This document shows, one piece after another, positions 21,333-41,300 of a DNA stretch of 64,000 nt. A program made the position numbers and the translations under genes. Location of the stretch: positions 59,332 through 123,331 of the forward strand of contig JAVZCB010000003.1 in NCBI GenBank assembly GCA_038874595.1, given 5' to 3'. This DNA comes from Candidatus Micrarchaeia archaeon. Lineage in GTDB: Archaea > Micrarchaeota > Micrarchaeia > CAILAH01. The notes under the pieces are model-generated. The model did no database searches and was not told the origin of the DNA. It saw only the letters and a program-made list of their open reading frames with translations. Numbering within the stretch: position 1 is the first letter of the stretch; every line of letters begins with the position of its first letter.

Positions 21333-21373
21333 CCCATTCGGGAAGATGTGAGCACTCAACGAAGGAAACTCAC

Positions 21374-21486
21374 TGTGTCGCTTTTTAGGCAGTTGTGTGT
21401 GAAGCACACAATTTGCAACCGAAGGTTGCAACTCCCAAAAAAGCGTAGTTTTTGGTGTCGCTTTTTAGGCATCCCAAAAAAGCGAC
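21374..21486 (-). repeat. Duplicated hairpin unit in the spacer; second copy carries a 41-nt insertion
   Basis: CGCTTTTTTGGGA/TGCCTAAAAAGCGACAC occurs twice; the downstream copy is interrupted at 21392-21432. Confidence 0.85.
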
Positions 21487-21487
21487 T

Positions 21488-21630: not shown

Positions 21631-21896
21631 TTTTTGGTGTTTCCTTCTCGTGCCTGTACAGGCTTCAAGAGATTTAGCTTGAGCAAAAAGGCAATACTAC
21701 AAACTCTGACCTTGCAACCTTAGAAGATCTCAAATATGCTTACAACCTAACACGTATATTCTTGTTAGGAGGTGATCTATCCGCAGGTTCCCCTACGGAT
21801 ACCTTGTTACGACTTAGCCCCCCTCATGAAACTCTAGTTCGATAACGGCAAGAACCGCTACCTCACTAGAACCTCACTTGGGTGACTTGACGGGCA

Positions 21897-21934
<38 letters not shown>

Positions 21935-21952
21935 CTGACATGCGATTACTAG

Positions 21953-21993
<41 letters not shown>

Positions 21994-22178
21994 CACTGGG
22001 ATGGGGTTTCAGGGATTAGCTCACCCTTTCGGGTTTGCAACCCGTTGTTCCCACCATTGTAGGCCACGTGTAGCCCGGGAAATTCGGGGCATACTGACCT
22101 ACCGTCGCTCACTCCTTCCTCCTGCTTAACGCAGGCAGTCCCCTTAGAGTGCTTCCTGGACGAATCCAAGAATCGCAA

Positions 22179-22673
22179 CTAAGGGCGTGGGTCTCGCTCG
22201 TTTCCGGACCACATAGCCTGAGAGTGGGGTTTGATGAAAGTGAGGAATTCTCTGGGAGGGGATGGAATTAAGTATTTGCCTTCTTTGATGAGCCTGAACC
22301 CAAGGCGCTCTATTAGCATCTGCTTATCAGCGCCGACACTGAACATCCTGGGTATTCCGTTCTCATCAATAAATCCTGATGCATCGAACACGCCCGCAAC
22401 AAATGCGGCGCTGTATGCATTCCTGTGTTTGAACCTGAGGTCCATTTCTTTCTCAACCTCTGAGAAGAATTTTTTGTACCCTGAGTGGTAGAAATATGCC
22501 TTCTTCCCGCTCAGCAGTATCTTGCTTGCGGGCATAAGCCCTGCATTTATAACTGCGCTTATGAAATGCTCACGCACGTGCGGAAGCCCCCGCACGCCGA
22601 TTCCTACCCATGATTTTCGTGTAGACCACATACCTATTATATATGCAAGTTCTGGCGTTAGCTTTATTTTCAT
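22179..22673 (-). CDS. LAGLIDADG-family homing endonuclease-like protein, intron encoded
   Basis: ELAYIIGMW (degenerate first motif) and AAFVAGVFDASG (second motif). Confidence 0.8.
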   Translation of the reverse strand: MKIKLTPELAYIIGMWSTRKSWVGIGVRGLPHVREHFISAVINAGLMPASKILLSGKKAYFYHSGYKKFFSEVEKEMDLRFKHRNAYSAAFVAGVFDASGFIDENGIPRMFSVGADKQMLIERLGFRLIKEGKYLIPSPPREFLTFIKPHSQAMWSGNERDPRP

Positions 22674-22712
22674 AATTTCCCCCCATCAAACCTTATCTCA
22701 AACTCTGTGATT
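22202..22712 (-). mobile_element. Archaeal BHB-type 16S rRNA intron (511 nt) carrying a LAGLIDADG ORF
   Basis: Interrupts GTTAAGTCCGG..AACGAGCG; terminal stem ATCACA/TGTGGT, bulge GAA, helix CCGG/CCGG, bulge AAA; exact register is ambiguous because GTCCGG is at both ends. Confidence 0.88.
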
Positions 22713-22866
22713 TCCCGGACTTAACCGGACAGTTCACACCACGAGCTGACGATGGCCATGCACCACCTCTCGGCTTGTCAAGCAAGGTCTTTAGCCTGGC
22801 TCTCATTCTGCCGTCGTTCCCGGTAAGATTCCCGGCGTTGAATCCAATTGAACCGCAGCCTCCACG

Positions 22867-22901
<35 letters not shown>

Positions 22902-23001
22902 TAGCCTTGCGGCCGTACTCCCCAGGTGGCAGACTTAACACCTACGCTACGGCACGGCAGCCGCTCAAAGCTGCTGCCACACCAAGTCTGCATCATTTAC
23001 A

Positions 23002-23043
<42 letters not shown>

Positions 23044-23115
23044 CTTCGTTCCTCACCGTCGGACGTGTTTTGGTCAGGCGCCTTCGCCACTGCTGGTCCG
23101 CCCAGGATTAACGGA

Positions 23116-23158
23116 TTGTAATCCCGTGGATTGCAAATTGTTGATGCAATCAACAGGT
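23116..23158 (-). other. 43-nt mini-intron in the 16S 690 loop (about E. coli 696/697)
   Basis: Removal restores GTAGGGGTAAAATCCGTTAATCC; BHB-like with helix GTAA/TTAC and bulges AAA and AAT. Confidence 0.75.
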
Positions 23159-23428
23159 TTTTACCCCTACCCCGGGCGTACCCCTGACCTCCCCCACTCC
23201 CAAGCCTAGCAGTATTACTGGCCCGCCCTTCGGTTAAGCCGAAGGATTTCACCAGCAACTTACAAGGCCGGCTACGAACGCTTTAGACCCAATATGCGTG
23301 GGTACCACTAGTAGTGCCGGTATTACCGCGGCGGCTGGCACCGGTCTTACCCACTCCTTATTCGCCTAGTTTTTTAGACTAAGCAAAAGGTCTCCCGAAG
23401 GAGACCACTCGGAGTTCCCCCATCACAC

Positions 23429-23476
23429 TTTTGCACCTTGCAAAGCAAGTGCAAATTGCAAAGCTCGCTTTGCATG
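23429..23476 (-). other. About 48-nt insertion in the 16S helix 15 loop (about E. coli 382)
   Basis: Removal restores CAATGCACGAAAGTGTGA; two hairpins; BHB fit imperfect. Confidence 0.7.
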
Positions 23477-24133
23477 TTCGTGCATTGTGGAGTTTTCGCG
23501 CCTGCTGCATCCCGTAGGACTAGGGCCCTTGTCTCAGTGCCCTTCTGGGGGCTCCCACTTACATGGCCCCTAAGGATTATAGGTTTGGTGGGCCGTTACC
23601 CCGCCAACAGCCTAATCCTCCGCAACCTCATCCTAAAGCGGACACACTCCAATTCGTGTGCCTTTTGAGCGAGAGGGCATTCCAGCGTCTCTCACCTATA
23701 GGGTATTATCCTCAGTTTCCCGAGGTTACCCCCTTCTTTAGGGCAGATTGATTACGTGTTACTCAGCCGTTTGCCACTCGTCCAGGTGAACGGGTAGACT
23801 TGCATGGCTTAGTCGAACTCCGATAGCAGTACCCTCCAGCAGGATCAACTGGAGTTGCTAAGGTCTTGGCATTCGCACCAGTGTTGGTGCATCTAGGTCA
23901 TACCACTTTGCGTGTAGTATCTTACCGTACATATGTGCCTTTCAGCACAGTGCACGTTTGCCTATTGCTCTTTAAGCCTCTCTTGAAGCCTCTATCTAAC
24001 CCGACACATCTTCGGATTATCATCAAGTCGCCGCATGTGCGGCCTATGCGCCACAATGGAAGCAGGCCTCATAGAAAGAGTATCACATCTCGGCCTAGCC
24101 GGGTTATGGCATCTCAACTTTAAGAAGTCTAGG

Positions 24134-26742: not shown

Positions 26743-27888
26743 ATGCGCATTGCCTATTACACCGAAACATACGTACCAAATGTTGACGGTGTTGTGAAAA
26801 GCATACTTGCATCACGTGAGCAGCTCACAAAGATGGGTGATGATGTATACGTATTTACATGTGGTACCCAACAGCTTATCCAGTCTAACACAGACCCGTT
26901 TGTGTTTTATTATGATTCAATACCATTCAAGCCTTACCCATCCTATCGTTTTGCCATAAATCCCTATCCATCATCATCAATAATCGATTCAAAGAAGATT
27001 GAGCTTGTGCATTCTCATGGTATGGGAACAATGGGGATTGCTGCTGAGCGTATTGCGCGCAAGCGCAAGCTCCCATTTATTGGTTCTTTTCATACACTCA
27101 TTCAATATGCTACGCATTACATCTCAACATCTTCAGCAATACAGGACATTGCAAAGAAGATTGCCTGGAAGTATCTCCGTTGGTACTATAACAAATGTGA
27201 TGTGACAATTGCACCATCTCAAGTAATTACTGATTTATTAACAAAGAATGGGTTTACGAATGTCCGGACAATCCCTAACGGCATTGATATTGACAGGTTT
27301 AGCGTTCGGGAGGCTGAATTTGGGCGTGAGGATTTTGGATTGAAGGAGGATGATAAGGTATTTCTTTTTGTTGGCCGGCTCGTGGTTGAGAAGAACCTGG
27401 ACGTGCTGATTAAGGCCTCAAAGAAAATCTCACGTGAGATACCAGATGCGCGGTTTGTAATTGCAGGTACGGGCCCGGCAGAGCTGTATTACAGGAAGCT
27501 TGTAGATGAGCATAAGGTGTCTGACAAATTCAGTTTTCTTGGGTTTGTGCCTGAGAATAAAATCCCCTCTCTCTACAAAAATTCTGATGTTTTTTTGTTC
27601 CCATCCAAGTTTGAAACGCAAGGCCTGAGTGGCCTTGAGGCAATGGCAAGCGGTCTTCCAGTATGCGGTGCTGACTACCTTGCAATAAGCGAGATAGTCG
27701 TCCCGGGTGTAAATGGGACATTATTTAATCCTGATGATCCAGATGATTGTGCTGAAAATGCAATTGAAGCGCTGCGCAAAAGGAAACAGCTTTCAAATGG
27801 TGCACGTGCAACAGCTGCCAAGTACTCAAACCAGGAGACAGCAATGCAGCTGAGAAAACTTTACGAAGAGCTTCTCAGCCGCAGCTAA
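26743..27888 (+). CDS. Glycosyltransferase family 4
   Basis: ETYVPNVDGV, PNGID, FVGRLVVEKN, FETQGLSGLEAMASG. Confidence 0.92.
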   Translation: MRIAYYTETYVPNVDGVVKSILASREQLTKMGDDVYVFTCGTQQLIQSNTDPFVFYYDSIPFKPYPSYRFAINPYPSSSIIDSKKIELVHSHGMGTMGIAAERIARKRKLPFIGSFHTLIQYATHYISTSSAIQDIAKKIAWKYLRWYYNKCDVTIAPSQVITDLLTKNGFTNVRTIPNGIDIDRFSVREAEFGREDFGLKEDDKVFLFVGRLVVEKNLDVLIKASKKISREIPDARFVIAGTGPAELYYRKLVDEHKVSDKFSFLGFVPENKIPSLYKNSDVFLFPSKFETQGLSGLEAMASGLPVCGADYLAISEIVVPGVNGTLFNPDDPDDCAENAIEALRKRKQLSNGARATAAKYSNQETAMQLRKLYEELLSRS

Positions 27889-27891: not shown

Positions 27892-30504
27892 TTATTTTAA
27901 GAATTCAGCAACCTCTTTTATAGCCATTGTGATTAATTTACCATTAAGCATTGCAATTTTAATGGATGCTCCGTTCGCCCCATAATCGCTTATGCTCTCA
28001 ATAAACTTGTCCTTGTTTTCTTCTGTTGCAAACACAACAATAACTTTTTCCTTACCGCCGATTGCCTGCATTATACGGTCGACGAGGCGTGCGCCTTCAC
28101 CAACGACAACCTTGAAGTTTCCACGCTTGCTTTTTATGTAGACATCACAATCTTTCCTTTCATTAAGGTGCGTGAAAGGTATTGCATTGTTAATAAGAAT
28201 ATCCCTTATTCTTCTGAATACTGAGAGGTACTTGTAGTCAAACCCGCTTGCCTGCTCCCATCTTGAAACAGTATATAAATCAAGATATTCCTTAACAAGC
28301 CCTTCAAACTTAAGCTTGTCAAGTATTATCTGCATATTATAATCTCCTATAAGTATTGGTCTGCCCAGGTATGAAATTTTCCTAAACCCTAACTTAAGCT
28401 CCTTGAGCATTAATGGCATATAATTCCAGCCATAATCCTTGTTTATGCTGTCAAACAGCTCAAGAACCATCTCTTTCTTTATGAATATCTTCTTTTTCTT
28501 TCTTATCTCAAATTCAGGTATATCAATTGCATACCTTACCTTCTCGCGTGCACGGAACATTATGCCTATAAATGCAATACCCCCCGTGAGCATTATTGCA
28601 GCCCAGAACCACCATTGCTCATAATACATCCTGACAATATTTGATACTCCATCGTATTGCAAACCATCAACCAGCTCAAACTTGAACGTATGCAGCTTAC
28701 CCTCTTCAAGAGGCTCATCAACCTTAAAGTATATAACTGGCGTATTGCCGCTTAAACCGGAAGATAACTTTATCTTGTATTTGCCATCTATGACCACGTA
28801 TGTGTTCTCAAGGTTTTTTGTGTATTGTGCAACAGCACTGCCGAGCTCTGGCGACTCAAGCGTGAATACAAACTGTTGTTTTTTCCAATCTATGCTTACC
28901 GGTACAACATCTATTTTTGGGACTATAAGCATCGATGACGCAAGCGTTCTTGGTGGTGACGTTGGTGTTTGTAGGAGTAGTATATACTTTCCAGGTCTAA
29001 GCTGCGGATCATACTGTGCTCTCTGCGTGTATTTTATTGGGAGAATATACTGTGTCCCAAACAACGCCTCACTTTCAATCTCATTGCTCGAATTGATTAC
29101 GCGTATCCACACAGGTGTAGGCTGCCTGAAATCATTCGAGCTTTCATCAAAGAATGCTTCTATATCAAGTTTTGAGCCGCTTAATTTCTGTGGTATGGTG
29201 TACAGGTTGTTTGCAGCAGTGCCCTTCTGCACGCGGTCAACGCGCAGGTATTTTGTTTGTGCATCCACAATGTTATTGTTTTGGTCATATGCGCGTGCAA
29301 ATATGCGCACGTATGCCCGGCTGAATACTGCCTCTTTTCCAAGCGTGTAAAGCGTATCATATGCAGCCTGGCCCTCGCTTGGTATAACATAATCTGCCGG
29401 GCTGGTGCCTATGAATTTGCCATATTCTTTGAGCCAGAGGCTATCCATTATGATCTTAGATATATCCTTGCCGGCCTCTTTTCCACTTTTCCAACCACTA
29501 TCGAGCGTGTTTGGAACAATAATAAGATAGCCCGGCCCGCCCCAGTTAATTACAGATATGCCCCCATATATCAGCTTTACCTGGGTTTTTTGTGGGTCCT
29601 TGGAAGTTACAGAATAACGTGCAATATCAAGATATCCCAATCCGGAAAGCGATGGTGCAGTGCTTGATATATCAAACCCAAGGTTTGATGCAACCTGGGA
29701 TACAGAGTAATCATTGCCTGGGAAAAGCCTCCCTCTACGCTCATCCATTATGCCCTGGTTGAACCCGTACCCTATATATAGTATAGTTACACCCTTTTGT
29801 GCAAGCTCTCTTAGGCTCTTCCCTTCATTACTTGTCAGTGCGAGCGAAGATGGGATATAACCCGTTGGTACTATAACGAGTGGGTTAGTGCCATTTGGAA
29901 GCGATTCCAGCTCATCAAGGTAGATTTCATTAACTACAATGCCATACCCGCCAAGCTCAGTACCAAGTGATTTCTTAAATTCATCATAGTATGTCGCTTG
30001 CTCTCGCCGGGAGTTTAATATATACACCTGGCTTGGCAGCGGGCCGTCCGCAGCATCCATGAATAACTCAACCTCTTTGACCCCACTCCCTTTGACTTCC
30101 ACAATAGCATATGGTGTCATCTTGCTATGCTCCTTAATGTTTGCGATACCGTAATCCTTAACCTCAAGCGTTATGTACGGGCTGACAGATTTCTCAGGCA
30201 ACCGTGCTTCAATCCCAGCACCCTGAATAGTGAACAAGATATATCCTATAAGCAGGCCCAGCATTATTATGAATATGCCGATGTACATAAACACCTGCCG
30301 CAAAGCACCCCTTACAGCAGGCTTGTTCTTTTGAAGTGTCTGCACGCTTTTTGCATCTTGCTTTTGTGCTTTTGTTTTCAATGTCGCTAACACAATATTT
30401 ATTGCATCGCCAATACCGAGCGATTTCTTTTTTGCAGGTGTAAACTTCTTGACATATTTTACTTCCTTTCGCAACAGGAACCTGTATTTTCGGCCTTCAG
30501 CCAT
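27892..30504 (-). CDS. Large two-TM membrane protein with big extracellular domain (T4SS-like operon)
   Basis: TM near aa 72-92 and aa 632-650, beta-rich middle, cytoplasmic C-terminal domain. Confidence 0.75.
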   Translation of the reverse strand: MAEGRKYRFLLRKEVKYVKKFTPAKKKSLGIGDAINIVLATLKTKAQKQDAKSVQTLQKNKPAVRGALRQVFMYIGIFIIMLGLLIGYILFTIQGAGIEARLPEKSVSPYITLEVKDYGIANIKEHSKMTPYAIVEVKGSGVKEVELFMDAADGPLPSQVYILNSRREQATYYDEFKKSLGTELGGYGIVVNEIYLDELESLPNGTNPLVIVPTGYIPSSLALTSNEGKSLRELAQKGVTILYIGYGFNQGIMDERRGRLFPGNDYSVSQVASNLGFDISSTAPSLSGLGYLDIARYSVTSKDPQKTQVKLIYGGISVINWGGPGYLIIVPNTLDSGWKSGKEAGKDISKIIMDSLWLKEYGKFIGTSPADYVIPSEGQAAYDTLYTLGKEAVFSRAYVRIFARAYDQNNNIVDAQTKYLRVDRVQKGTAANNLYTIPQKLSGSKLDIEAFFDESSNDFRQPTPVWIRVINSSNEIESEALFGTQYILPIKYTQRAQYDPQLRPGKYILLLQTPTSPPRTLASSMLIVPKIDVVPVSIDWKKQQFVFTLESPELGSAVAQYTKNLENTYVVIDGKYKIKLSSGLSGNTPVIYFKVDEPLEEGKLHTFKFELVDGLQYDGVSNIVRMYYEQWWFWAAIMLTGGIAFIGIMFRAREKVRYAIDIPEFEIRKKKKIFIKKEMVLELFDSINKDYGWNYMPLMLKELKLGFRKISYLGRPILIGDYNMQIILDKLKFEGLVKEYLDLYTVSRWEQASGFDYKYLSVFRRIRDILINNAIPFTHLNERKDCDVYIKSKRGNFKVVVGEGARLVDRIMQAIGGKEKVIVVFATEENKDKFIESISDYGANGASIKIAMLNGKLITMAIKEVAEFLK

Positions 30505-30521
30505 ATCTTTCCCTCAGTCAT

Positions 30522-31262
30522 CTAGCGAACGGTTTCAAGGTAGCCCTCACGGACCATCTTATTGAGCACCTGCTCAACCCTGCTTTCGCTCAGTTTGTAA
30601 ATCTTGCAAAAATCGCCAATGTTTATTTCCCCACCGTGCTCACGAATCCAATCCTGTATTTTCAGCATGAGCGCATCATCAGAGAATTTCTCAAGCTCAT
30701 CGATCTTAAGCTTGAGCTCATTGCGTTCATCCCTTAGCTCGAGCAGGTCCTTGCTTAGCTTTTCATTGCTCTCTTTCAGCCTGGCATTGAGAAGCTGCTC
30801 TTCCTCAATCTTAGCTAGCAGCGCATCGTATTTCGTGTATAGTTTCTCATAATCCGAAGTGGCAAACTCCTTTATTTCAGCTAGGAATATATCAAGAACC
30901 TGCATATAGCTTCCAAGGTCTACCTCATATGCATCTTTAAGCAGGACTAGCACATTTGAAGTATACCTTAACAACTCAAGCTGTCTCTTACGCATGCTTG
31001 TTTCTGGGGTTATAGTGTATACCACTTCTATATTATCAGGATTGAGGTACATTATGCTGAATAGGTACGGCACACCATCTATGTCCCTGCTGTCAATCTT
31101 GATTATTGCGACACTATCCTTTATCTCGGCAACTTCAGCATCAGGAATACTGTCAACCATCCTTAGCAATTGGTCTTTTGGGACTTTACGTTTCGCACTA
31201 AACTTAAATGAGGCCCCCATCGGTTCAATCACGACATCTGGTTCTTTCTTGTCAGCTGACAT
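30522..31262 (-). CDS. Coiled-coil protein with C-terminal winged-helix domain
   Basis: Heptad region aa ~135-192; IQDWIREHGGEINIGDFCKIYKLSESRVEQVLNKMVREGYL. Confidence 0.7.
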   Translation of the reverse strand: MSADKKEPDVVIEPMGASFKFSAKRKVPKDQLLRMVDSIPDAEVAEIKDSVAIIKIDSRDIDGVPYLFSIMYLNPDNIEVVYTITPETSMRKRQLELLRYTSNVLVLLKDAYEVDLGSYMQVLDIFLAEIKEFATSDYEKLYTKYDALLAKIEEEQLLNARLKESNEKLSKDLLELRDERNELKLKIDELEKFSDDALMLKIQDWIREHGGEINIGDFCKIYKLSESRVEQVLNKMVREGYLETVR

Positions 31263-31264
31263 TA

Positions 31265-31717
31265 TTATATCCCCTCTGTCTTTGGTACATATCTCATATG
31301 TGCTATTGCCAAGAGAAATATGAGAAACAATAGGCCTGCAACAAGCGACCCAATTGATAAATTCATAACAAGGAGCAACATCGTCATGAATATACCAATC
31401 CCTCCGTATATTATGAGCGAGCGCTCAAAGCCACCGCGTTTTTTCAGGTGTTCTTCTATATGCTTTTCGCATACCACAAGGGGATTTCCCTGTTCTGTAT
31501 GCGTTTTTCTCTTAACCCATCTTATAGCGGCAATTACATAATCTTCCTTTATTGGGTAGCCGCTTACAAATTTTGGCTTTGTATCCTCTGCCTTGTCGCA
31601 GTATATGCACACCCCACGCGCCATGTGTGCCTTGTTATGCCTTTGCTGCTTTCTCTTACTCTCACTTTTTCCGCTTCCAAGAAATGATGCAAGAATCCCC
31701 TTCTGTTCTTTAGCCAC
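31265..31717 (-). CDS. Small membrane protein with putative Zn-binding motif
   Basis: CIYC...CEKH followed by two C-terminal TM helices. Confidence 0.65.
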   Translation of the reverse strand: MAKEQKGILASFLGSGKSESKRKQQRHNKAHMARGVCIYCDKAEDTKPKFVSGYPIKEDYVIAAIRWVKRKTHTEQGNPLVVCEKHIEEHLKKRGGFERSLIIYGGIGIFMTMLLLVMNLSIGSLVAGLLFLIFLLAIAHMRYVPKTEGI

Positions 31718-33278
31718 CTAATTCCACCTCCGTGCTTTCCCCTCTTATGCCAAGCTTCTTATAGTCTGCCTCTGAGAATATGTTGATTATTACACTGTCT
31801 TCCACGCCAAGGTCTTTTAGGAATGCAGTTATATCATTCCGGTCCACATCGTACCTTTCCATCATTATTACAAAATCAACAACATCCATATGCCTGTTGG
31901 ATTTGTCAAATAGCGAAGTGATTTCCTCAACTTTATCATCCGCCAGCCCGAACATCCTGAGCTTTTTGCGCAGCTCATCGCGCTCAAATGAAAGTGTCTT
32001 ACCCACAATATCACCTTCTCCAACCAATTTAGGCTTCACATCAAGGAAGTACTCAACAACCGGCTCCTCACCTTCTATTTTTGATAGCAGAAATGTCTCA
32101 GGGTAAGGTGTACTGGTCTGCAATGCCATGTTTACAGCTGCCTGCCCCACACCAAGCCTTGCGATTTGCTTTCGCATATAATCGCTGAAGTTTAGCGAGT
32201 TTTGGAGATAATCAAGGAATTTCTCAAACTTTACGCGCAGTATAAATGTCGTTCCCACATTAGAGAATATTGCCTCGCTTATATCAGTCGGGTTTTGTGA
32301 TGCAACCAGTAGTGCAAACTGGTATTTTCTACCCTCTCTCACTATCATTACGGCATCGCTATTTTCTTCCTTTGCAATCTTCCAAGCCTCATCAAGCACA
32401 ATAATAAGCTTGATACCCTTGCTTTTCTCCCAACCCACCAATCTCATTTTTTCTTTGATAAATTGCAGAACACTCAGTGCGGCTAGTGCACGCATCGTCT
32501 CATCTGGAAGCCCTGACAGGTCTAGGTCAACCATCCCGGAAGATATAAGCGCATCTAAATCTATAGTGCTGGGCTGTGCAAAGAAGTCTTCACCTTCACG
32601 AGTGAATTTCTTCAGCCTGTATATTGCATTCTCTAGCTCAACTGGGAATTCGTAAGTCCCCGCTGCCAGCTTCTCTTCAAGCACTTCAACAACGTTTTTC
32701 AGCGTGGGTGGCTGCATAATGTTTCCAAGCGCATCCTTCTGGTTGCGCTCAGACATCTTGAATCCCTTATTTATGTATGCCTTTTCGATGGCTTCCTCGG
32801 TTAATCTCTTCTGTTCCGGGTAATTGCCTATATCCGTTAATATCTCAAGGCTCCTTGAAATCTGCTTAACCCTATCAAGAGGCCTCATGCCTGCAAGGTC
32901 AAGCAGGTTGAGGTAGGACCCCTTACCGAGTGCAAGCACTTTGCCTCCGGCCTGCTTCACCCACTCCCTATACTCCCCTGCCCAGTCGATTATTAACGCG
33001 TTTGTGCCCCACACGAAAGAGGCCCGCGTGAGGAATGTTTTGATGAAATACGATTTACCGGCACCGGATATCCCAACCACGGCAATGTGCGGGTTGGTAA
33101 CGTTCGTATAGCTCCAGTGGAACGGCTCGTTAAACGTTGCAGTCCTCCCTATATATATTGAGTTTCCGGGGTCGCCTGTTACCAGCTCTGCTGGTGGTTC
33201 AGGAGGCCTGGTTATGATGCCCCTGCTTGCAATATCCGAGCTGTAAAGCTTTTTGTTTTTTACCTTGATTATTCCCAT
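31710..33278 (-). CDS. VirB4/HerA/FtsK-superfamily ATPase
   Basis: Walker A GISGAGKS, IIDWAGEY, Walker B IIVLDEAW, REGRKY..LLVASQNP; true start MGIIKVK at 33278. Confidence 0.88.
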   Translation of the reverse strand: MGIIKVKNKKLYSSDIASRGIITRPPEPPAELVTGDPGNSIYIGRTATFNEPFHWSYTNVTNPHIAVVGISGAGKSYFIKTFLTRASFVWGTNALIIDWAGEYREWVKQAGGKVLALGKGSYLNLLDLAGMRPLDRVKQISRSLEILTDIGNYPEQKRLTEEAIEKAYINKGFKMSERNQKDALGNIMQPPTLKNVVEVLEEKLAAGTYEFPVELENAIYRLKKFTREGEDFFAQPSTIDLDALISSGMVDLDLSGLPDETMRALAALSVLQFIKEKMRLVGWEKSKGIKLIIVLDEAWKIAKEENSDAVMIVREGRKYQFALLVASQNPTDISEAIFSNVGTTFILRVKFEKFLDYLQNSLNFSDYMRKQIARLGVGQAAVNMALQTSTPYPETFLLSKIEGEEPVVEYFLDVKPKLVGEGDIVGKTLSFERDELRKKLRMFGLADDKVEEITSLFDKSNRHMDVVDFVIMMERYDVDRNDITAFLKDLGVEDSVIINIFSEADYKKLGIRGESTEVELGG

Positions 33279-33282
33279 GGCA

Positions 33283-34083
33283 TCATCCCGTTTTTTCAAC
33301 AAGCTCGTTATAGCTCGTTGGGATAGCGTATTCCCATTCCAGGCACATCTCGGCATCCTCGCCAACCAAGTCAACAACCTCCGCGTTGAGGCTGTTTGAA
33401 AGAACAGCTTTAATCTCTTTTGACTGGCTGAGCGCCTTATCGCGTGCCTCATCCATAGTAATACCTTTTGCAACTGTCATAACATACATCACAGCAGCCA
33501 TCGGCTTGACACCACTTGCAAGCCTGCGTAGCAGATTCTCACCTATCTCTTTCTCTTTTTGCCATTTGTCTATTTTGATAACATCCGGTTCGGCTTTCTC
33601 CATTTCTCTTTTAATCCTTAGGCTTGCTTCATACACTTTTGCCTGTATGCTTTCCCTGTATGCAGCGATATCTTTAGATGAGAGAACAAGATTGAGTTTC
33701 ATTGGCGAATTTATCGCTCCGAGTGCAGTTTCAAAGTCGCGCAGGTAGACCTCTGCACGCTCTTCGGATTTGCCGGCAATTTCTTCACGCTCAGGTATGT
33801 TGACCAACATATACTTTGCAGCGATAAACTTGCTCCCAGCCCTTTTGATTATAACATCTTGCCCAGGTGGGAAGATATAGTCACCCTTTGTGTAAGTTAT
33901 CTTCATAATCTTAGTGAATATAGGAGTAAGGATGTAATCTGCGTATAAGTATGCACCTGCAATTATGGCTAGCAGCAATGCAATTATAAATAGTAGTAAC
34001 CCTCCTTGGAATGAAATAAACAGGCTTACAAGCACTACAAACGCCACACCAATAGTCATATACAATTTTGGTATTTTCGGCAT
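33283..34083 (-). CDS. Membrane protein with VirB3/VirB4-N-terminal-like domain
   Basis: Two N-terminal TMs and a cytoplasmic alpha/beta domain with coiled insert; paralog of 34090-34851. Confidence 0.6.
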   Translation of the reverse strand: MPKIPKLYMTIGVAFVVLVSLFISFQGGLLLFIIALLLAIIAGAYLYADYILTPIFTKIMKITYTKGDYIFPPGQDVIIKRAGSKFIAAKYMLVNIPEREEIAGKSEERAEVYLRDFETALGAINSPMKLNLVLSSKDIAAYRESIQAKVYEASLRIKREMEKAEPDVIKIDKWQKEKEIGENLLRRLASGVKPMAAVMYVMTVAKGITMDEARDKALSQSKEIKAVLSNSLNAEVVDLVGEDAEMCLEWEYAIPTSYNELVEKTG

Positions 34084-34089
34084 TAATTA

Positions 34090-34851
34090 TCACCATTCAG
34101 GAGTCATAAACTCCCAATCAAAGCAGGATTTCATCCTGTTATGTGTTAAGTCATCAACGCGGACCGACATGCCGCCACCAAATGTGGCCTTGATTTCACG
34201 TGCGCGTACCTTTGCAGCATTCACTGCGGCCTCTTTTGAAGCGCCCCTTGCGGAAGTTTGTAGAATATACATGATTGCACGCGGCCTGTTTTGTGATTTG
34301 TATAATGATTCAAGCATCCTATCCCACATCAGCCTTTTTCTTTCCAGGACCTCTACGACTCTCTCATCAACCTTTTTCTTTTGCCTTTCTGCTGCAATTT
34401 CACTCTCCACTTTGGCTTTTTCATCTTCGATTGCGCGCACGTACTTGCTGATGTCACGCTCATACAGCACCGTAGATATTTTAACAGGGTCCTTGATGCT
34501 AGATATCGTCCTTTCAAAATACTGTGCATAATCCTTAACTTCATCTTCACTCTTGTTTGTCATTGTTTCATAAACATCAACGCTCATAAACACGCTTGCA
34601 ATATACTCGTCACCTTCTTGTCGTATAACTGCATCCTCGCTCGCAGGTATCTCAACTCCATATTTGACACGTATATCTTTCTGGAACTTCGTAATAAAAG
34701 GAACGTATATGTTACCTCGCGAGTAAAATAACCATCCCATCATTGCAGCAATAATAGCAAGCAATGCAAATGGCTGGAACTGTGTAGCAAATATCATCAG
34801 GAATATTCCTGCTACCAGCGCTGCATATGCGAGCGTTTCATTTAGGTCCAT
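34090..34851 (-). CDS. Membrane protein with VirB3/VirB4-N-terminal-like domain
   Basis: Two N-terminal TMs; KSEDEVKDYAQYFERTISSIKDPVKI; ends CFDWEF like the paralog's CLEWEY. Confidence 0.6.
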   Translation of the reverse strand: MDLNETLAYAALVAGIFLMIFATQFQPFALLAIIAAMMGWLFYSRGNIYVPFITKFQKDIRVKYGVEIPASEDAVIRQEGDEYIASVFMSVDVYETMTNKSEDEVKDYAQYFERTISSIKDPVKISTVLYERDISKYVRAIEDEKAKVESEIAAERQKKKVDERVVEVLERKRLMWDRMLESLYKSQNRPRAIMYILQTSARGASKEAAVNAAKVRAREIKATFGGGMSVRVDDLTHNRMKSCFDWEFMTPEW

Positions 34852-34862
34852 TCATACCCTCC

Positions 34863-35204
34863 TTACAATTTTTCCTTGCAGTTGTACTGGTATGAATCTA
34901 TATCTTCACCCGCAGCGTTTGCAACAACGCTAACTATCCAGGGTGCACTGAACGCAATGATAAGCCCTAATATAGCGCCTATGGCAATCGTTGTAGCCCA
35001 TACATTCGTCCTTGACCTGAACTCTGCCCCAAGCACTTGCCCGCCGGCATAAATCAGCCCTGCAAATACCAGGAGTGTAAACGCAAGAAGTGGCATTACC
35101 GCTTTGATATCAACGCATATGTTGTTCAGCTCCTCCGGGAAGCCCGCAAACGCAAGGGCAAACCCAAGAACAAGTGCCGCAAGCATATACATAGCAAATC
35201 GCAC
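34863..35204 (-). CDS. VirB2/TrbC-like pilin
   Basis: 113 aa: signal peptide ending ALAFA, two hydrophobic helices separated by a short basic loop (EFRSRT), two Cys. Confidence 0.65.
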   Translation of the reverse strand: MRFAMYMLAALVLGFALAFAGFPEELNNICVDIKAVMPLLAFTLLVFAGLIYAGGQVLGAEFRSRTNVWATTIAIGAILGLIIAFSAPWIVSVVANAAGEDIDSYQYNCKEKL

Positions 35205-35261
35205 ATCATCACCTGTTTTTATATTCAGGAGTATATTTTAAAAACTTATATATAAAAAAAG

Positions 35262-35369
35262 CGCCCACGCTGGGATTTGAACCCAGATCAAAGGCTTGCT
35301 TCTTGAAAGCCAAACAGCGTGGCCTTTCAGCCGGAGGCCCTCATTCTATCCAAGTTAAACTACGTGGGC
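35262..35369 (-). tRNA. tRNA-Arg(CCG) with 34-nt intron at 37/38 (35330-35297)
   Basis: GCCCACG/CGTGGGC acceptor, AGGGC-CTCCGG|A-GCCTT anticodon arm, CTGGG-TTCAAAT-CCCAG. Confidence 0.9.
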
Positions 35370-35406
35370 ACGTATGCTTTACTTCTCATATGGCAGGATT
35401 AAGTAG

Positions 35407-35517
35407 CGGGCCCGACGGGATTTTTGGGCGCATAACAGCTGAAATGCAACTGCCACACAGAACCCGTGACCTTCGGATTAAAAGTCCGCCGCTCTGGCCA
35501 AGCTGAGCTACGGGCCC
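35407..35517 (-). tRNA. tRNA-Lys(UUU) with 36-nt T-loop intron at 56/57 (35459-35424)
   Basis: GGGCCCG/CGGGCCC acceptor, loop CTTTTAA; BHB helix GGGT/GCCC with a 12-bp intron stem. Confidence 0.9.
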
Positions 35518-35560
35518 AATTGCAGAGTTATTTATATGAGTTATCCTTATATAGTTAAAC

Positions 35561-36403
35561 ATGGCAGACCCGCAAACCCGCAAACCCAGCGAAATGGTAC
35601 ACAGGCCACTTTCTTCACGCAAATATGACTATGGCCATTTGTTAGTGGTTGGCGGGTCAAAATATTATGCAGGTGCCCCTTTACTGAACGCGCTTGCCGC
35701 ATACATTGCCGGTGTTGATGTAGTGACAATTGCGGCACCGCACCGTGCAGCAGATATTGCGGTGTCACACTCACCAGATATTATTGCATATCCGCTTTCA
35801 GGCGATGTGCTTGGTACAGAACACTTACAGGAAATTAATAGCATAATAAAGCGGAATGTTACAGCAGTGCTCATAGGCGGCGGTATGGGCCGTGAGAAAA
35901 AGTCGTTTGATTTTGTTGTTGAGCTGTACAATGCACATAAAAATCTCCCTTTCATATTCGATGCGGATGCATTACATTGTGCGAGTAGAGTAGATTTTTC
36001 ATCCAAGGATCTTCTAATCCCAAACATAAAAGAGTTTGGGCTCATCTCATCTAGTGATACACCTACACAGGTTTCAGTTAAGACAACAGCTTTCTCAATC
36101 AAGTCCAACCTTCTCGTTAAAGGCCCAGTTGATTACGTTTCAGATGGTAAGCGCGTTAAAGAAATAAAAGATGCTTCCGGCAAGGCAGTTTACCTTGCAA
36201 AAGGTGGCACGGGTGATATTCTTGCAGGCGTGTGCGCCTCTCTCATTGCGCAGGGTCTCACCCCTTTTGATGCGGCGTGTATAGGTGCAGCAGCTGTAAA
36301 GCATGCAGGTGCCGCTCTTGGGAAATTGCACGGGCCGTTTTACCTTCCCACAGATTTGTTACGCGTGCTCCCGGATTCTCTCGTGCACGAGCTTGGAAAA
36401 TAG
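35561..36403 (+). CDS. nnrD: ADP-dependent NAD(P)H-hydrate dehydratase
   Basis: KYDYGHLLVVGGSKYYAGAP, IGGGMGR, DADAL, KGPVD, GGTGDILAG. Confidence 0.9.
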   Translation: MADPQTRKPSEMVHRPLSSRKYDYGHLLVVGGSKYYAGAPLLNALAAYIAGVDVVTIAAPHRAADIAVSHSPDIIAYPLSGDVLGTEHLQEINSIIKRNVTAVLIGGGMGREKKSFDFVVELYNAHKNLPFIFDADALHCASRVDFSSKDLLIPNIKEFGLISSSDTPTQVSVKTTAFSIKSNLLVKGPVDYVSDGKRVKEIKDASGKAVYLAKGGTGDILAGVCASLIAQGLTPFDAACIGAAAVKHAGAALGKLHGPFYLPTDLLRVLPDSLVHELGK

Positions 36404-36451: not shown

Positions 36452-38368
36452 ATGGGGGTAAAATGTATGACTCGTTCAATGAAAACACACGAGCTTAAAA
36501 TGGTTTCTGCAAACAGTGCATCAGGTAATGAGTTTGATACTCTGAAAGATGTAGTCGCCACGAAACGCAATGAATCGTGGGTGCGCAAGGTCCCACGTGT
36601 GATGCGCAACGCATTCTACGGCATTGCGATTGCAACGATGCTGTTTTTATCTTCTGAAGCGCGCGCCCAGGATATTCCGGATATACCAGGTGAACCTTCA
36701 GTTCCAGTATCACAACAACCACAACAGAAACAAGAGATGCCAGAAGCACCGTCGGCACCAATTGTGAGCGAGGCTCAACCGCCGGAACAGAAAGTGCAAG
36801 AAAGTGCGCCCAGTGTAAGTTTAAGTGAAGACCTAAAAAGTGCATATGTCTCATATAAGCGTGGCAAAATCAGTGAATCTGATTTAGGTGTTCTGCTCGC
36901 ACGTGAAGCTGCACGCATTGTGAAAGAGCAGAATCTTGAACCGAAGAAGTTTGCAGAGGTTCTATCAAATCTGAAGAAACAGCTTGAAAGCTGGTGCAAT
37001 TGTAATGATGAATGCAGCGGTGCACCCCAGAAAAAAGCGGTGACCGCAAATAAAAAAAGTGGCAAATCTAAAGGAAGTAGTGTCATCAAAAAAGATGGTA
37101 AAAAACGCAAGGCAAATGTTAGTGTTGAAGAGGTAAGCAAAGAGAAGTACGAGCGCAATATTTGTGACCTGGCAGGGAAGGAAGGGGTTCCTCTTGAGGG
37201 ATGCGGAGAGAATGCTGGTAAGAATGAGCCACAGGTTGTAATAATAAAGCGCACAGCTGAACCAAAGAAGGCAGGAGTGGACAAAGAACCAATCTCAACC
37301 GAATCAACCAATGAACCAAATGAAGAAGGTGCAAAGGTTATAGATGCAAATATGGTTGATACTGCCAATGATAATAGCGGAAAGAACGAGAGCCCTCTCA
37401 CTTCAAACGAATCTGTAAATAATGTGCCGCAATCGCAGTATTTTGAGCTGTCAATACCAATGTCAGGTGGGTACTCAAACGTTCTAAGTCCATACAGGGG
37501 TAATAATTACTTAAAGAGTATACGCGGCTCCACTCCTGTTGTGATGGGTGCACTGCTTGGTAATCCACACTTCGGCCTTTCAGTGATGGGCGGATATAAT
37601 GGCAATTACTATCTCTTTAACAGCTTTGATAGTACGGTATACACACGGCATTCATCGCTTGCGGGTGCAGGTATCCTGCTCAGATTTGATAATACAAGCC
37701 TTCACGCACTTCTAACGATGAATGGTTCTTTTGAGCAGGAAAACATGGGCCTTCTTTTGCTTACCAATAACCCGGTATTTAACCTGAGCCTTGCAACCCA
37801 GTTCTGGAGTGAAACACCAACCGAGTTTGCATTGAGGTACTGGAATCCAAATAGCCAATATCCACTGATTTTTGAGTCGAGCGGTTTGTTAAAGGAAGCG
37901 CAGGACACTTCGATAGGTGCTAAATATAGGATTAGTGATTGGGATGCATGGCTTCAGATCCCGCTAGCATATGGCAGTGATAGTGGGGTATACCCGAACC
38001 TTGTACTTGGAGGCAAGTATTACAAGATGAATGCCAACCCGAATGATAGGGAAATAATAGCAGGCAAGGTAGGTGGCTCAATAACCTATAAGTGGCTCAA
38101 CGTAGGTGCGGTATACATTCCGGCATATGCATCTTACACAAGGTTCTTGTTTGGCGAGGATGGGACATATGTTGACAAGAATGGTGTTGAGCATACCGGC
38201 CAACTTTGGGAGACCATCAAATATATCAGTGGTGCCGGCTTGTTTGTAAACGCTAAGATGCTTAGTGGTGATAATGATAGTTGGTACCTAGTAACACATC
38301 TTGATTACGAAAAGATAGGCACTAACTATTGGGTAAACGGATTGTTTACTCTTAATCTCAGGTGGTGA
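36452..38368 (+). CDS. Secreted protein with low-complexity N-terminal half and beta-barrel-like C-terminal domain
   Basis: Signal peptide ending EARA; about 300 aa of amphipathic strands; C-terminus GLFTLNLRW. Confidence 0.6.
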   Translation: MGVKCMTRSMKTHELKMVSANSASGNEFDTLKDVVATKRNESWVRKVPRVMRNAFYGIAIATMLFLSSEARAQDIPDIPGEPSVPVSQQPQQKQEMPEAPSAPIVSEAQPPEQKVQESAPSVSLSEDLKSAYVSYKRGKISESDLGVLLAREAARIVKEQNLEPKKFAEVLSNLKKQLESWCNCNDECSGAPQKKAVTANKKSGKSKGSSVIKKDGKKRKANVSVEEVSKEKYERNICDLAGKEGVPLEGCGENAGKNEPQVVIIKRTAEPKKAGVDKEPISTESTNEPNEEGAKVIDANMVDTANDNSGKNESPLTSNESVNNVPQSQYFELSIPMSGGYSNVLSPYRGNNYLKSIRGSTPVVMGALLGNPHFGLSVMGGYNGNYYLFNSFDSTVYTRHSSLAGAGILLRFDNTSLHALLTMNGSFEQENMGLLLLTNNPVFNLSLATQFWSETPTEFALRYWNPNSQYPLIFESSGLLKEAQDTSIGAKYRISDWDAWLQIPLAYGSDSGVYPNLVLGGKYYKMNANPNDREIIAGKVGGSITYKWLNVGAVYIPAYASYTRFLFGEDGTYVDKNGVEHTGQLWETIKYISGAGLFVNAKMLSGDNDSWYLVTHLDYEKIGTNYWVNGLFTLNLRW

Positions 38369-38374
38369 GCGTAA

Positions 38375-41300
38375 ATGGATAACAAGGCAATCATAATCAT
38401 AGGGCTCATCTTCCTTCTTGCATCTGCATCTGCATTTGTAGTGAACATAAAGGGAGATACCATATATAATATAAGCTCAGGCAATATCCAGGCCGCACCG
38501 AGCGGTTTGAGTGTCTACCCGCAAGTTGTCCCTAGGTATTGTGATGTTACGGTAACATCAGCACCCAACAAGCAGATTAAGGTGTACGCACGTAACTACA
38601 TAGATACTGGGCTCGGGTGCAAGACAAACTCAAACGGTGTGTGTACATTTAGGTTTACTAGTGCACAGCCGCAGGGCACTTATTACATCTCAGGGAACAA
38701 TTTGCAGGTTGCAGTTGTGCTCGACCCGTCAGCACACTGTGAAAAGCAGGTATCCTCTTTATACTTCCAGCAGGATAACGTAAAAGTCGTGGCAGGTGTG
38801 CCTTACATATTTAATACAAGTGCATATGCGCCTGATGGCTCTGCGGTGGTTCCTAAACCAACATTCTCGCTTGTTAATAATAGTATAGGCATACTCTCAT
38901 ACCCAGATTACTTAACACCCAACCAGGTTCAGTTTGTAGGTGTAAAGGTTGGCACAACATCTTTGGTGGCAGAGTACGGTGGCAAGACTGCCACAGCAAC
39001 AGTTACAGTGGCACCTGGCAGGTGTAACATATTAAGCGTTTCAAAGCCGGATGTTGCATATGTGGTAGGTAGTGACGCTTACCTTCTTGTTAATACTTCA
39101 GATAGGTATAACAATACTAAAAGTGATGTAGAGGTTATTGTAAAGTATATACAGCCTGATGGTAAGGTGTTTGAGACAACAGCATATTCAAATGCTAACG
39201 GCATAGCTGAAATCTCTGTTCCAGTTGGGACAATAGCGGGTACCGGCCGCCTCGCGGTTGATACAAAGCCGCAACTGTTATGTCCAGCTCAGAAGAGCGA
39301 GTACTATTTCAATGTTATCCCTGATAATCCCGAATCGGTTGTGGTTTCGCCGCAATCTAGGACACTCAACGTTCACGATGCTGAGAAATTCAGGGCATAC
39401 GTTTATGATAAGTATGGAAACGAGATAAAAGATGCGGTTGTTAGCTGGGAGAGCAGTGATCCGGCAGTTGCAAGTGTTGACAGTGCAGGTGTAGCTACTG
39501 CGAACAGGCCAGGTAACACTGTGGTAACAGCAACTACATCTTATAATATGGTGGTGGTTACACCACAGTGCTCAGGTGTTATGTGTGTTCCAGTAGCATC
39601 TGTTGTGCAAGTGCCAGTCAGTGGCAGTGCACAGGTTACTGTCCTGAACGGCAGGGAAGATCACATAGTAATAAGCCCAGTTGCACCAACAGTTGTGGCT
39701 GGAGACACGCGGCAGTTTACTGCAACGTTGTATGATGAGTATAACGCCGTTGTGCCAAACGCGGTGTTTGCATGGTCCGCCGTTAATGGTACAATAACTC
39801 AGGGCGGCTTGTACACTGCACCACAAAAGGTTGGTGTTGATAAGGTCACAGTATCTTCAGGGTCTGTGCGTGCAAGCACAGAAGTAACAATTGTGAACGG
39901 CCCGGCAGCAAAGATAGATGCGTTTTCTGAAGGGCCGAGCGCTATTGTAAACAGCCCACACGTGCTATTTGCAAATGTGACCGACCAGTACGGCAACCCG
40001 GTAAGTGGTGTTGCTGTTAACTATGAAGTTGTGAGTGGCACTTTGCAGCCATCAAGCGCACAGGTTACCACCGGTGCAGATGGTATCGCATCTATCGTAG
40101 TTATAACCGGCCAAACAGAGGGTAAGGTTATATACAGCATGAACATTGATGGCACATCAATCACTGATAACGACCAGTTCTCAGTGTATATACCAAACGT
40201 ATCTCTTTCAGGGAGTGTTGCGGAGTATTACTCATCTGCACCTCTAGAAGGCGTATTAGTGCAGATAGAGGGAACGCCTTACACAGCACTTACAAATGCG
40301 AGTGGTGATTACAAGATTGATAATGTAAACCTTAACGGCAGGTATAACATCTCATTCAGCAAGAGCGGTTACAGAAGTGAGCGTGTCCTGGATTTCGAGA
40401 TGCTTAAGGATAATGAGGATAATGCATACACTCTTGACATGCATTTGAGAGTCTTGACTCCTATTTCAGGTACTGTGAGGAATGAGAGCGGGCACTTAAT
40501 GCAGGGTGTAAACGTAACACTTTACGAAAATGGTGCATACAGCACAAGCATGCTCACAGATGCAAACGGCCGTTACGGGTTTAATGTTGCGCCAGATTCT
40601 GCAGGGGCACAGTTCCTTGTGACCGCAACAGCCCCAGGTTATGACACGGCATCTGCGGGTACGATGATAACACCAGGTGTGCCCGTAGTACTTGACCTTA
40701 CACTTCGCGGTCTTGACAACAACCCACCAGTGGTTATGTTTGTTGACCCAACACCTGTGGATGGTGCATACCTTGGTAGCGACTTTATAATATCAACGCT
40801 CGCATCAGACCCGCATTACAGCTCAACTTTGATAGAGGTTGTAAGCGGTGCAACTACAACCGCTGTTGCTGCGTGTGCATCTCCAATATGTACTGCAATG
40901 ATTACTGGCGGCACGTTCCCAGATGGGGCGATTACGGTTATTGCAACCGCCAATGATACACGCGGTAACACGGCATCTGTTCAGCGTAATTATTACCTTG
41001 ACTATGTGGCCCCACTCATTAGCTTTGTTGTACCTACACCTGCTGATGGCAGCACGCTGAAAGCACCGTTCGTGATTAATGTGAGCGCATCTGATGACAC
41101 AGGTGTGAATAAGATTGAACTTGTAATAATACAAGATGGAGCAACGGTGCATACTGAGCAATGCGGTGCAAGTGTATGTGAATATCTACTTAACAACTCA
41201 GTATACAGCGGTGTAATTGATGTTGTTGCAACAGCGTATAGTGAATTGCAATCATCTACAGTACAGAGGTCATTCACTGTACTCCCACCCGACCCAATCT

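Follow-up and report, generated by a model that had tools for sequence, protein, structure and literature searches.

The DNA that concerns us here, 64,000 nucleotides from contig 3 (positions 59332-123331) of a Candidatus Micrarchaeia archaeon and hereafter called the window, holds seven co-oriented open reading frames on its minus strand between positions 27892 and 35204, which we call g1 to g7. The genome is small (918 kb in 7 contigs, 93.5% complete), and close homologs of the window's proteins come from metagenome-assembled genomes of Candidatus Micrarchaeota/Micrarchaeia, members of the DPANN archaea. From g1 to g7, the intergenic distances are 11, 6, 4, -8 (an overlap of g4 and g5), 2, and 17 nucleotides. 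An original prediction, made by a model that saw the sequence alone, had described seven genes running in one direction with gaps under 20 nucleotides, and this is what the coordinates give (2-17 nucleotides and one overlap of 8); the motifs that it quoted for two paralogous two-transmembrane proteins, for an ATPase, and for a CxxC/CxxH protein are all present. What might so compact a row of genes make? We argue that these genes, with partners encoded elsewhere, very probably specify a machine that descends from a type IV secretion system (T4SS), of which the operon itself would be the motor-and-pilin half. Gene order was compared across 20 loci from 20 related genomes, representing about a dozen families, and it is to these 20 loci that the counts below refer.

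The first gene, g1 (34863-35204), encodes a protein of 113 amino acids that reads as a VirB2/TrbC-type pilin precursor: a signal peptide ending in LAFA comes first, and after it two hydrophobic helices flank a charged loop (the hydropathy scan registers three hydrophobic segments). Two tandem paralogs lie on contig 4 at 32281-33010 and match g1 with E values of 4e-22 and 3e-21. One of them exceeds the Pfam cut-offs for both TrbC (34.4 bits against 27.9) and T4SS_pilin (32.4 against 26.6), the second stops just short of them (25.8 and 24.8 bits), and an alignment of the family preserves the same plan throughout, with a signal peptide ending in AFA and a charged loop between two hydrophobic helices. 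Because a paralog passes the curated cut-offs and g1 matches its paralogs at 4e-22, we count g1 as a putative member of the VirB2 family, and the earlier description of the 113-residue protein as a VirB2-type pilin thereby gains support through its relatives. Its place within the operon is a different matter: the pilin gene adjoins the operon here, but it does so in only 5 of the 20 loci (in one further locus, it lies 7 kb off), so that the pilin is an immediate neighbor in some lineages only. As a separate observation, 7 of 10 aligned pilins carry a cysteine near the mature N terminus (in the context IC...K) together with one near the C terminus, and the other 3 have neither; to judge from the alignment, such a pair could form a disulfide that joins both ends, recalling the head-to-tail cyclization of TrbC/VirB2 pilins. 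On contig 4, the two tandem paralogs are followed (32281-36092 in all) by two genes for glycosyltransferases of the PMT_2 family (dolichyl-phosphate-mannose type), which suggests glycosylation of the pilin or of the envelope.

The next two genes, g2 (34090-34851; 253 amino acids) and g3 (33283-34083; 266 amino acids), encode membrane-anchored proteins that are paralogs of each other (28% identity over 209 residues; BLASTP E 1e-25) and share the motifs P-x-x-(E/Q)-D-x-(V/I)-I, DIxxY, (R/K)EIKA, and CxxWE. In g2, as in g3, a VirB3-like transmembrane hairpin precedes a soluble domain. To see what this domain might be, one has to go to structure. The fold was predicted for g3, from an alignment of g2, g3, and 28 homologs from the loci of 15 relatives, and the AlphaFold2 model (predicted local distance difference test, pLDDT, 85.1; predicted template modeling score, pTM, 0.70) has two transmembrane helices and then an alpha/beta domain into which a helical hairpin is inserted. 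When this model was compared with the Protein Data Bank (PDB) by Foldseek, the top 14 matches were all TrwK, the VirB4 of R388 (best E 8.4e-4; probabilities 0.90-1.00), after which came only unrelated structures at E values above 0.06. VIA-align places residues 66-257 of g3 on residues 220-378 of TrwK with Z scores of 11.6, 9.2, 8.8, 8.7, and 8.5 and a root mean square deviation of 3.0-4.3 Å over 148-158 residues; other structures that reach a similar Z match the helical hairpin alone. The model thus supports the view that g2 and g3 correspond to the latter half of VirB4's N-terminal domain, a stretch that directly precedes the ATPase in VirB4, and it bears out the earlier proposal of a split VirB4 whose N-terminal module stands apart from the motor, there being no comparable match elsewhere in the PDB. 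The further proposal, that a VirB3/VirB4-N module had been duplicated, survives in part: two copies are present in 12 of the 20 loci and a single copy in the remaining 8.

How separate are the two pieces? When 1.84 billion representatives were searched exhaustively with a profile, no fusion of this N-terminal domain to an ATPase occurred among the best 150 of 279 matches, nearly all of which are proteins of 240-280 amino acids or fragments; none was found among longer proteins either, which is weak evidence. The profile of the g2/g3 family does not match the N-terminal domains of the canonical long VirB4 proteins of relatives, nor do g2 and g3 match the NCBIfam TrsD model (NF041427) at E values up to 1, and sequence-profile searches of the PDB with the alignments of g2/g3, g6, g7, and the polytopic family described below returned coiled-coil or chance matches only. 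A prediction of the complex between g4 and the soluble portion of g3 scored 0.00, which is no answer and counts as evidence neither way. Two observations on the wider family stand beside these. On one metagenome contig (L133, 2109-6146), a divergent N-domain protein of 246 amino acids directly precedes a DUF87 ATPase of 372 amino acids in a small operon of its own, and many genomes of families f5 and f9 hold a third match to the g2/g3 profile; there is probably a second, paralogous system of N-domain protein and ATPase.

The motor itself is g4 (31710-33278), a VirB4/CedB-type ATPase core. Its open frame extends upstream to a TTG at 33473, and because the frames of relatives are 504-545 amino acids long, we take the conserved ATG at 33278 as the start, which gives 522 amino acids. 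Walker A (GISGAGKS) lies at residue 69 and Walker B (IIVLDE) at residue 292, the Pfam matches are AAA_10, DUF87, and the TraG P-loop, and the hydropathy scan finds no transmembrane segment. The protein has no N-terminal domain of its own: it starts some 40 residues ahead of its alignment to the ATPase domains of CedB (positions 252-542 of a model of 590), the CD1110-type VirB4, TraC, and others. At the other end is an extension of about 120 residues that matches no family, and in 10 of the 20 loci (L031, L034-L041, and L043), the C-terminal 100 or so residues of the ATPase form a separate open reading frame. The ATPase family is tightly conserved (mean column identity 71%), and its homologs are publicly annotated as “ATP-binding protein,” “DUF87,” or “HerA.”

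That last name raises the possibility that we are looking at a membrane ATPase of the HerA/FtsK superfamily with a nonsecretory role, in DNA segregation, in repair, or in remodeling of the division membrane, and that the likeness to a T4SS is superficial. HerA models and structures do match the ATPase core, and conservation this high would suit a housekeeping role. The matches differ in reach, however. The HerA models give g4 at most 53 bits and cover residues 240-382, the C-terminal third of the core, whereas the models for CedB, CD1110, TraC, VirB4_plasma, and VirB4_CagE run across the whole of it (residues 39-379), with NCBIfam scores of 81.5 bits for CedB, 67.5 for CedD, 65.5 for the CD1110 type of VirB4, and 64.3 for TraC. 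In 26 of 26 members of the ATPase family, the best E values from the CedB, CedD, and VirB4-type models beat those of every HerA model, and the genome encodes its true HerA elsewhere, on contig 1 at 64213-65727, at 163 bits to the HerA models. Add to this that the neighboring g2 and g3 have the fold of the VirB4 N-terminal domain specifically and that VirB2-family pilins sit in the same cluster in several lineages, and the nonsecretory alternative becomes improbable in our estimation. The original prediction had the ATPase right, with its mixed HerA/VirB4 motifs and its extra C-terminal domain, and the grouping with housekeeping HerA that it had raised against itself is not what we find.

In one relative (G013; locus L040, 9485-12628), the ATPase gene carries an intein with a LAGLIDADG homing endonuclease just past Walker A (Pfam Intein_splicing, 1.7e-20; LAGLIDADG_3, 8.7e-24), and the ATPase frames of two more relatives, G041 and G038, are similarly enlarged, to 1176 and 1067 amino acids.

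Three further genes complete the operon. g5 (31265-31717; 150 amino acids) has a CxxC...CxxH head and continues into a hydrophobic C-terminal part that we read as two transmembrane helices, one of which (120-138) the hydropathy scan flags; in the family alignment, C37 is invariant and C40 and C83 are nearly so, and the head, CxxC...CxxC/H throughout the family, is predicted to be zinc-ribbon-like and cytoplasmic. g6 (30522-31262; 246 amino acids), predicted to be cytoplasmic, consists of an N-terminal domain that is conserved, then a coiled coil, and a winged helix at the C terminus (mean identity 48% in the family alignment), with weak Pfam matches to the EAP30/Vps36 winged helix (2.8e-5) and to MarR_2, and its profile meets the winged helix of CdvB (2xvc) weakly, at an E value of 0.012. 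g7 (27892-30504; 870 amino acids) spans the membrane near residues 75-93 and 632-650, on either side of a large ectodomain. In its AlphaFold2 model (29 sequences; pLDDT 83.4), the ectodomain appears as beta-sandwiches and an alpha/beta domain like those of ThuA and GATase1; residues 159-356/403 match domain B of enzymes of the GH42/GH164 type (Z 9-10), and Ig-like and S-layer-like structures are matched as well. Residues 674-748 match winged helices (Z 7-7.6), an alpha/beta domain follows, and this cytoplasmic C-terminal part is the most conserved portion of the protein. Here, too, the features described earlier, a CxxC/CxxH membrane protein, a coiled-coil winged-helix protein, and an 870-residue two-transmembrane protein with an external domain, were found in the sequences. 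Names are harder to come by: Pfam and NCBIfam offer no informative family for any of the three, a look-up of g7 in the ESM Atlas, whole and by its C-terminal part, gives nothing above chance, and the named relatives of g7 in public annotation are “hypothetical.” The weak resemblance of the winged helices of g6 and g7 to those of ESCRT-II and CdvB is a point for the division-related alternative raised above, and we return to what else these domains may be doing.

Facing g7 on the plus strand is a convergent GT4 glycosyltransferase gene (26743-27888; Pfam Glycos_transf_1, 6e-42), whose ortholog, at 33-71% identity, occupies the same position in 10 of the 20 loci; tentatively, it is possibly an accessory to the system.

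If this is a secretion-type machine, where is the membrane platform? About 14 kb before the window, on contig 3 at 36873-45146, lie six co-oriented genes for polytopic membrane proteins, and a profile search with these six brings in seven more at contig ends (contig 1, 1-2563, and contig 4, 0-4317), for a total of 13 paralogs. Members of the polytopic family turn up in 178 of the 201 sampled genomes of the phylum, with counts in each family of genomes identical to those of g2/g3, down to the 2 of 10 in f7. In 9 of the 20 loci, five or six polytopic genes stand directly upstream of g2/g3 and in the same orientation, and in one (L035), the whole assembly is a single cluster: two pilins, six polytopic genes, g2, g3, the ATPase, its C-terminal piece, g5, g6, and g7. 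From the shared distribution, the upstream placement, and the L035 cluster, we conclude that the seven genes are part of a larger system, and the combination of adjacency with co-occurrence makes a functional link between the polytopic family and the operon very likely. The original prediction of a seven-gene unit was, therefore, too small; the actual unit takes in polytopic paralogs and pilins encoded elsewhere. One candidate relationship was that the polytopic proteins begin with a pilin hairpin of the CedA1/CedA type: one paralog shows a sub-threshold TrbC match at its N terminus (1.2e-4), which is a hint, and an hhalign comparison of the pilin alignment with the polytopic paralogs is not significant (E 0.028; probability 1.8%). 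Right after the six-gene polytopic operon (contig 3, 45563-47723) come two genes that are FtsZ-like, judged by their first residues only; as neighbors, they are one more item on the side of a non-secretory, division-type ATPase.

Of 61 relatives sampled for the ATPase, 52 have it, at 55-97% identity. All 20 loci keep the order (g2/g3)-g4-g5-g6-g7 amid differing genomic neighborhoods, and g5, g6, and g7 are each present in every one. The g2/g3 family occurs in 178 of the 201 sampled genomes of the phylum and in 134 of the 152 of high quality; in the 201-genome sample, it was not found in families f2, f11, f14, f17, f22, f24, and f26 and was found in 2 of 10 genomes of f7. That several families live without the system, which is then not universally needed, speaks against the housekeeping ATPase considered above.

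Conjugative elements have a pilin and a VirB4 as their core, g1 has two tRNA genes directly upstream, and in some relatives a canonical, full-length VirB4 belonging to the CD1110 family stands among pilin-like neighbors, so could the operon be an integrated conjugative element, or the remnant of one, beside its tRNA genes? This reading comes close to being refuted. Besides the identical order in all 20 relatives in spite of their different neighborhoods, the family's presence in 178 of 201 genomes, and the 55-97% identity of the ATPase, the GC content of the operon (42-45%) is that of the genome (43-45%), and the tRNA 3' end has no second copy in the window. Genome-wide (at 93.5% completeness), there is no match to a tyrosine integrase, versus matches in 14 of 14 control genomes; of the type IV coupling protein (T4CP) families, PF02534 has no match in the genome, and PF10412 has P-loop-level matches only (14 bits). 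Because of the gene order, the breadth of distribution, and the lack of an integrase, a T4CP, or an att-like repeat, the system is best described as chromosomal and vertically inherited, and it is not an integrated element. The original prediction of a chromosomally domesticated machine lacking VirD4, integrase, and att repeat agrees with all of this, and its suggestion that synteny be followed through relatives ended in the conserved order just given. The full-length VirB4 genes are something else: they occur in G033 (L126, 4435-7089), G049 (L132, 3720-6098), and G010 (L130, 2910-5918), scoring up to 327 bits against a CD1110 cut-off of 325, with small pilin-like genes near the CD1110-type VirB4 in L126, L129, and L132. 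In some Micrarchaeota, this is a second, conjugative-type T4SS separate from the conserved operon.

We can now set out how the parts might fit together. g1 and its two paralogs would serve as VirB2-type pilins; g2 and g3 would hold a VirB4 N-domain-like module in the membrane through their VirB3-like hairpin and recruit g4, the VirB4/CedB-type ATPase core; and the 13 polytopic paralogs would supply the membrane platform or channel, the role that VirB6 or CedA has in known systems. As lineage-specific partners, g5, g6, and g7 would place a zinc ribbon and two winged helices inside the cell and a large ectodomain outside it. The whole would form a short pilus, or a conduit, that reaches a partner or host cell and pulls nucleic acid inward.

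Several things weigh against this scheme, and they deserve to be listed together. Taken by itself, g1 matches Pfam TrbC weakly and under the cut-off (E 0.18; 12.4 bits). g4 does not reach the curated cut-offs of its best models (81.5 bits versus 700 for CedB and 67.5 versus 600 for CedD); being under every curated cut-off, it is supported as a member of the superfamily or clade, with no equivalog assignment. g5, g6, and g7 bear no resemblance to any T4SS component, and winged-helix domains also serve protein-protein contacts. Among 44 polytopic paralogs scanned, none matches Pfam TrbL or an NCBIfam model (CedA or any other), and the family has no detectable sequence similarity to VirB6/TrbL or to any PDB chain. 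Related genomes are nonindependent samples, so that the co-occurrence counts overstate their support. Finally, what is directly established is homology, a conserved order of the genes, their distribution, and their co-occurrence; the joint assembly of the proteins, the direction of transport, and the substrate we infer.

How does such a machine compare with those already described? The closest likeness is to the Ced system found in Sulfolobales and Desulfurococcales (CedA, CedA1, CedA2, CedB, CedD, and CedE) and the Ted system of Thermoproteales (TedA, TedB, and TedC), which import DNA using VirB2-, VirB4-, and VirB6-like parts only (PMC9905601). Like them, the Micrarchaeota system is a chromosomal, domesticated archaeal derivative of a T4SS with a VirB2-like pilin, a VirB4-like ATPase (for which CedB and CedD are the best models), and polytopic membrane partners; like them also, it comes with no coupling protein or integrase that we could find, and no search aimed at relaxases was made. 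In Ced, the VirB4 N-terminal domain is likewise distributed over two proteins, those of CedB and CedD superposing on different parts of it (PMC11868833), but CedB and CedD each retain an ATPase, whereas the Micrarchaeota N-domain proteins have none. Other differences are the 81.5 bits of g4, far from the CedB cut-off already given; the 13 polytopic paralogs with no detectable sequence similarity to CedA; the three proteins g5, g6, and g7, which have no counterpart in Ced or Ted; and the host, a genome-reduced symbiont rather than a free-living crenarchaeon, with no known ultraviolet or repair context.

A second likeness is to bacteria. In the TrsC-TrsD-TrsE arrangement (VirB3-like, VirB4-N-like, and VirB4) of MPF-FATA systems of the pGO1/pSK41 type, a stand-alone protein related to the VirB4 N-terminal domain also lies beside the ATPase, and TrsD is widespread in Patescibacteria, with a homologue listed as essential in one cultured strain (PMC12102498). 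The Patescibacteria T4SS is, like ours, chromosomal, phylum-wide, and at home in genome-reduced cells (there epibionts). g2 and g3, however, have no NCBIfam match to TrsD and are related to it by fold and role only, they own a transmembrane hairpin, their ATPase is devoid of any N-terminal domain, and the accessory genes are unrelated, all this in another domain of life. With canonical VirB4 (TrwK of R388 and the CD1110 family of monoderm elements), the system has in common the motifs of the ATPase core and the N-domain fold, but the Micrarchaeota version is split into two or three polypeptides, lacks a counterpart of the first half of the N-terminal domain, and adds a coiled-coil hairpin within that domain and an extra domain at the C terminus of the ATPase. 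There is a parallel within DPANN as well: the SPEARE-type giant proteins of Nanohaloarchaeota also combine a T4SS-related ATPase with a large Ig-rich surface protein in a symbiont and are proposed to act at host contact (PMC10266531). Compared by description, the ATPase there is fused to the giant protein and the VirB4 neighbor keeps its N-terminal domain, whereas in Micrarchaeota, the ATPase and g7 are separate proteins and the N-terminal domain is split off. The earlier statement that the gene set matches no recognized system is, then, half right: g5, g6, and g7 have no counterpart, but the separate N-terminal domain has precedents in TrsD and in CedB/CedD.

What would the machine do? We put nucleic-acid import forward tentatively, as a job that by analogy it may have, although we would not give it quite an even chance; the explanation as a whole, a T4SS-derived conduit most likely importing nucleic acid, we rate slightly better than even. 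The genome has no match to either marker tested for de novo synthesis of purines and pyrimidines, PurD (GARS_A) and PyrF (OMP decarboxylase), versus both in 14 of 14 control genomes, and therefore, nucleotides must come from outside the cell; a ribonucleotide reductase is encoded on contig 5 (44756-46252). Patescibacteria have a chromosomal T4SS without which, in the single strain examined, epibiotic growth fails (PMC12102498), and a 2026 preprint describes a cultured member of that group that feeds on RNA from its host and shows possible T4SS pili where the two cells touch (10.64898/2026.06.21.733656). Together, the Ced/Ted-like list of parts, the missing markers of nucleotide synthesis, and the Patescibacteria parallel lead us to favor a conduit for import.

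The same parts could, of course, be put to another use. A T4SS-derived machine might work in contact or export, as an adhesive pilus or bridge, in the delivery of effectors, or simply in holding cells together, and what surrounds the operon invites the thought: an ectodomain in g7 whose Ig-like and alpha/beta make-up is typical of surface and adhesion proteins, glycosyltransferase genes kept beside g7 and beside the pilin paralogs, and a cluster of big Ig-repeat proteins some 3 kb upstream (36452-45192). The T4SS-like proteins of nanohaloarchaea have been interpreted as effector “straws” (PMC10266531), and the Patescibacteria genes that are essential for epibiotic growth belong to a T4SS whose substrate is unknown (PMC12102498). 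Such a machine ought to recruit its substrates, however, and no coupling protein was found; no candidate effector genes accompany the operon, the nearest archaeal relatives by ATPase score are importers, and a cytoplasmic zinc ribbon with winged helices suits the handling of nucleic acid at least equally well. We consider contact or export the main rival, somewhat less likely than import.

One may also push the import conduit much further, and about this we are doubtful. It would then be a phylum-wide feeding organ, a conjugation machine run in reverse that brings in the DNA or RNA of the host as the sole supply of nucleotides. Pilins and a heteromeric channel of a dozen VirB6-like paralogs would connect the cell to its host, a VirB4 motor in three pieces (anchor, core, and C-terminal module) would draw the nucleic acid in, and g5, g6, and g7 would receive it on the cytoplasmic side. 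By this analogy, the system would correspond, among archaea, to the essential T4SS of Patescibacteria, having evolved independently from the same ancestral machine.

How DPANN archaea draw on their hosts for building blocks is not yet settled, and in the full-text literature, we found no molecular candidate for Micrarchaeota and no paper that links Micrarchaeota to VirB4, VirB2, T4SS, or Ced-like systems; the paper on the Micrarchaeum harzensis co-culture has no mention of pili, secretion, or such ATPases. What we describe is a concrete candidate, a strongly conserved, multigene, and predicted envelope-spanning system in about nine-tenths of the sampled genomes of the phylum, by which Micrarchaeota may draw DNA, RNA, or other material out of a partner cell. 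Its ancestry in conjugation and its kinship with Ced/Ted would, by analogy, point toward the transfer of macromolecules from cell to cell, and the parallel with the essential T4SS of the ultra-small Patescibacteria runs the same way. We class it as a T4SS-derived, Ced/Ted-like system, and it widens the known plasticity of VirB4, whose N-terminal domain, core, and C-terminal module are encoded apart from one another, an intein being present in one lineage. New in this account are the support that Pfam gives to the pilin family, the tie with the polytopic family and its single-cluster arrangement, the intein, the context of nucleotide auxotrophy, and an N-domain protein unfused to its ATPase in the best 150 of 279 matches of an exhaustive search. 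If g5, g6, and g7 and the polytopic family prove to belong to the machine, the T4SS-associated components would gain new members.

A few features of the surrounding DNA remain to be recorded. Ahead of g1 on the minus strand, a GGTGA ribosome-binding motif (35208-35213) and an A/T-rich, TATA-like stretch (35241-35260), between the 3' end of a tRNA gene and g1, can be read from the sequence, and we think it likely that the latter is the promoter of the operon. The two tRNA genes (35262-35517) were located by Rfam at 35262-35369 and 35405-35517. The first is 108 nucleotides long; 59 nucleotides of the second are matched, with an apparent 3' part some 40 nucleotides farther along, and ARAGORN reports zero tRNAs in the whole window. 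From the lengths, the split match, and the ARAGORN miss, we conclude that both tRNAs probably bear introns, one of them at a noncanonical position. An archaeal rRNA operon occupies 18381-23855, and its 16S match (21767-23855) measures 2089 nucleotides against 1478 in the model, which implies a large insertion in the 16S gene. The first 18 kb of the window (1-18000) have a GC content of 29-38%, whereas the genome averages 44%, which points to an island that is foreign in composition or specialized. On the far side of the operon, past the tRNAs and a gene for NAD(P)HX dehydratase, the surface or adhesion cluster at 36452-45192 consists of three coupled genes, among them one for a protein of 1608 amino acids built of Big_1, invasin-D3, and CarboxypepD_reg repeats and one for a protein of 664 amino acids with the same type of domain.

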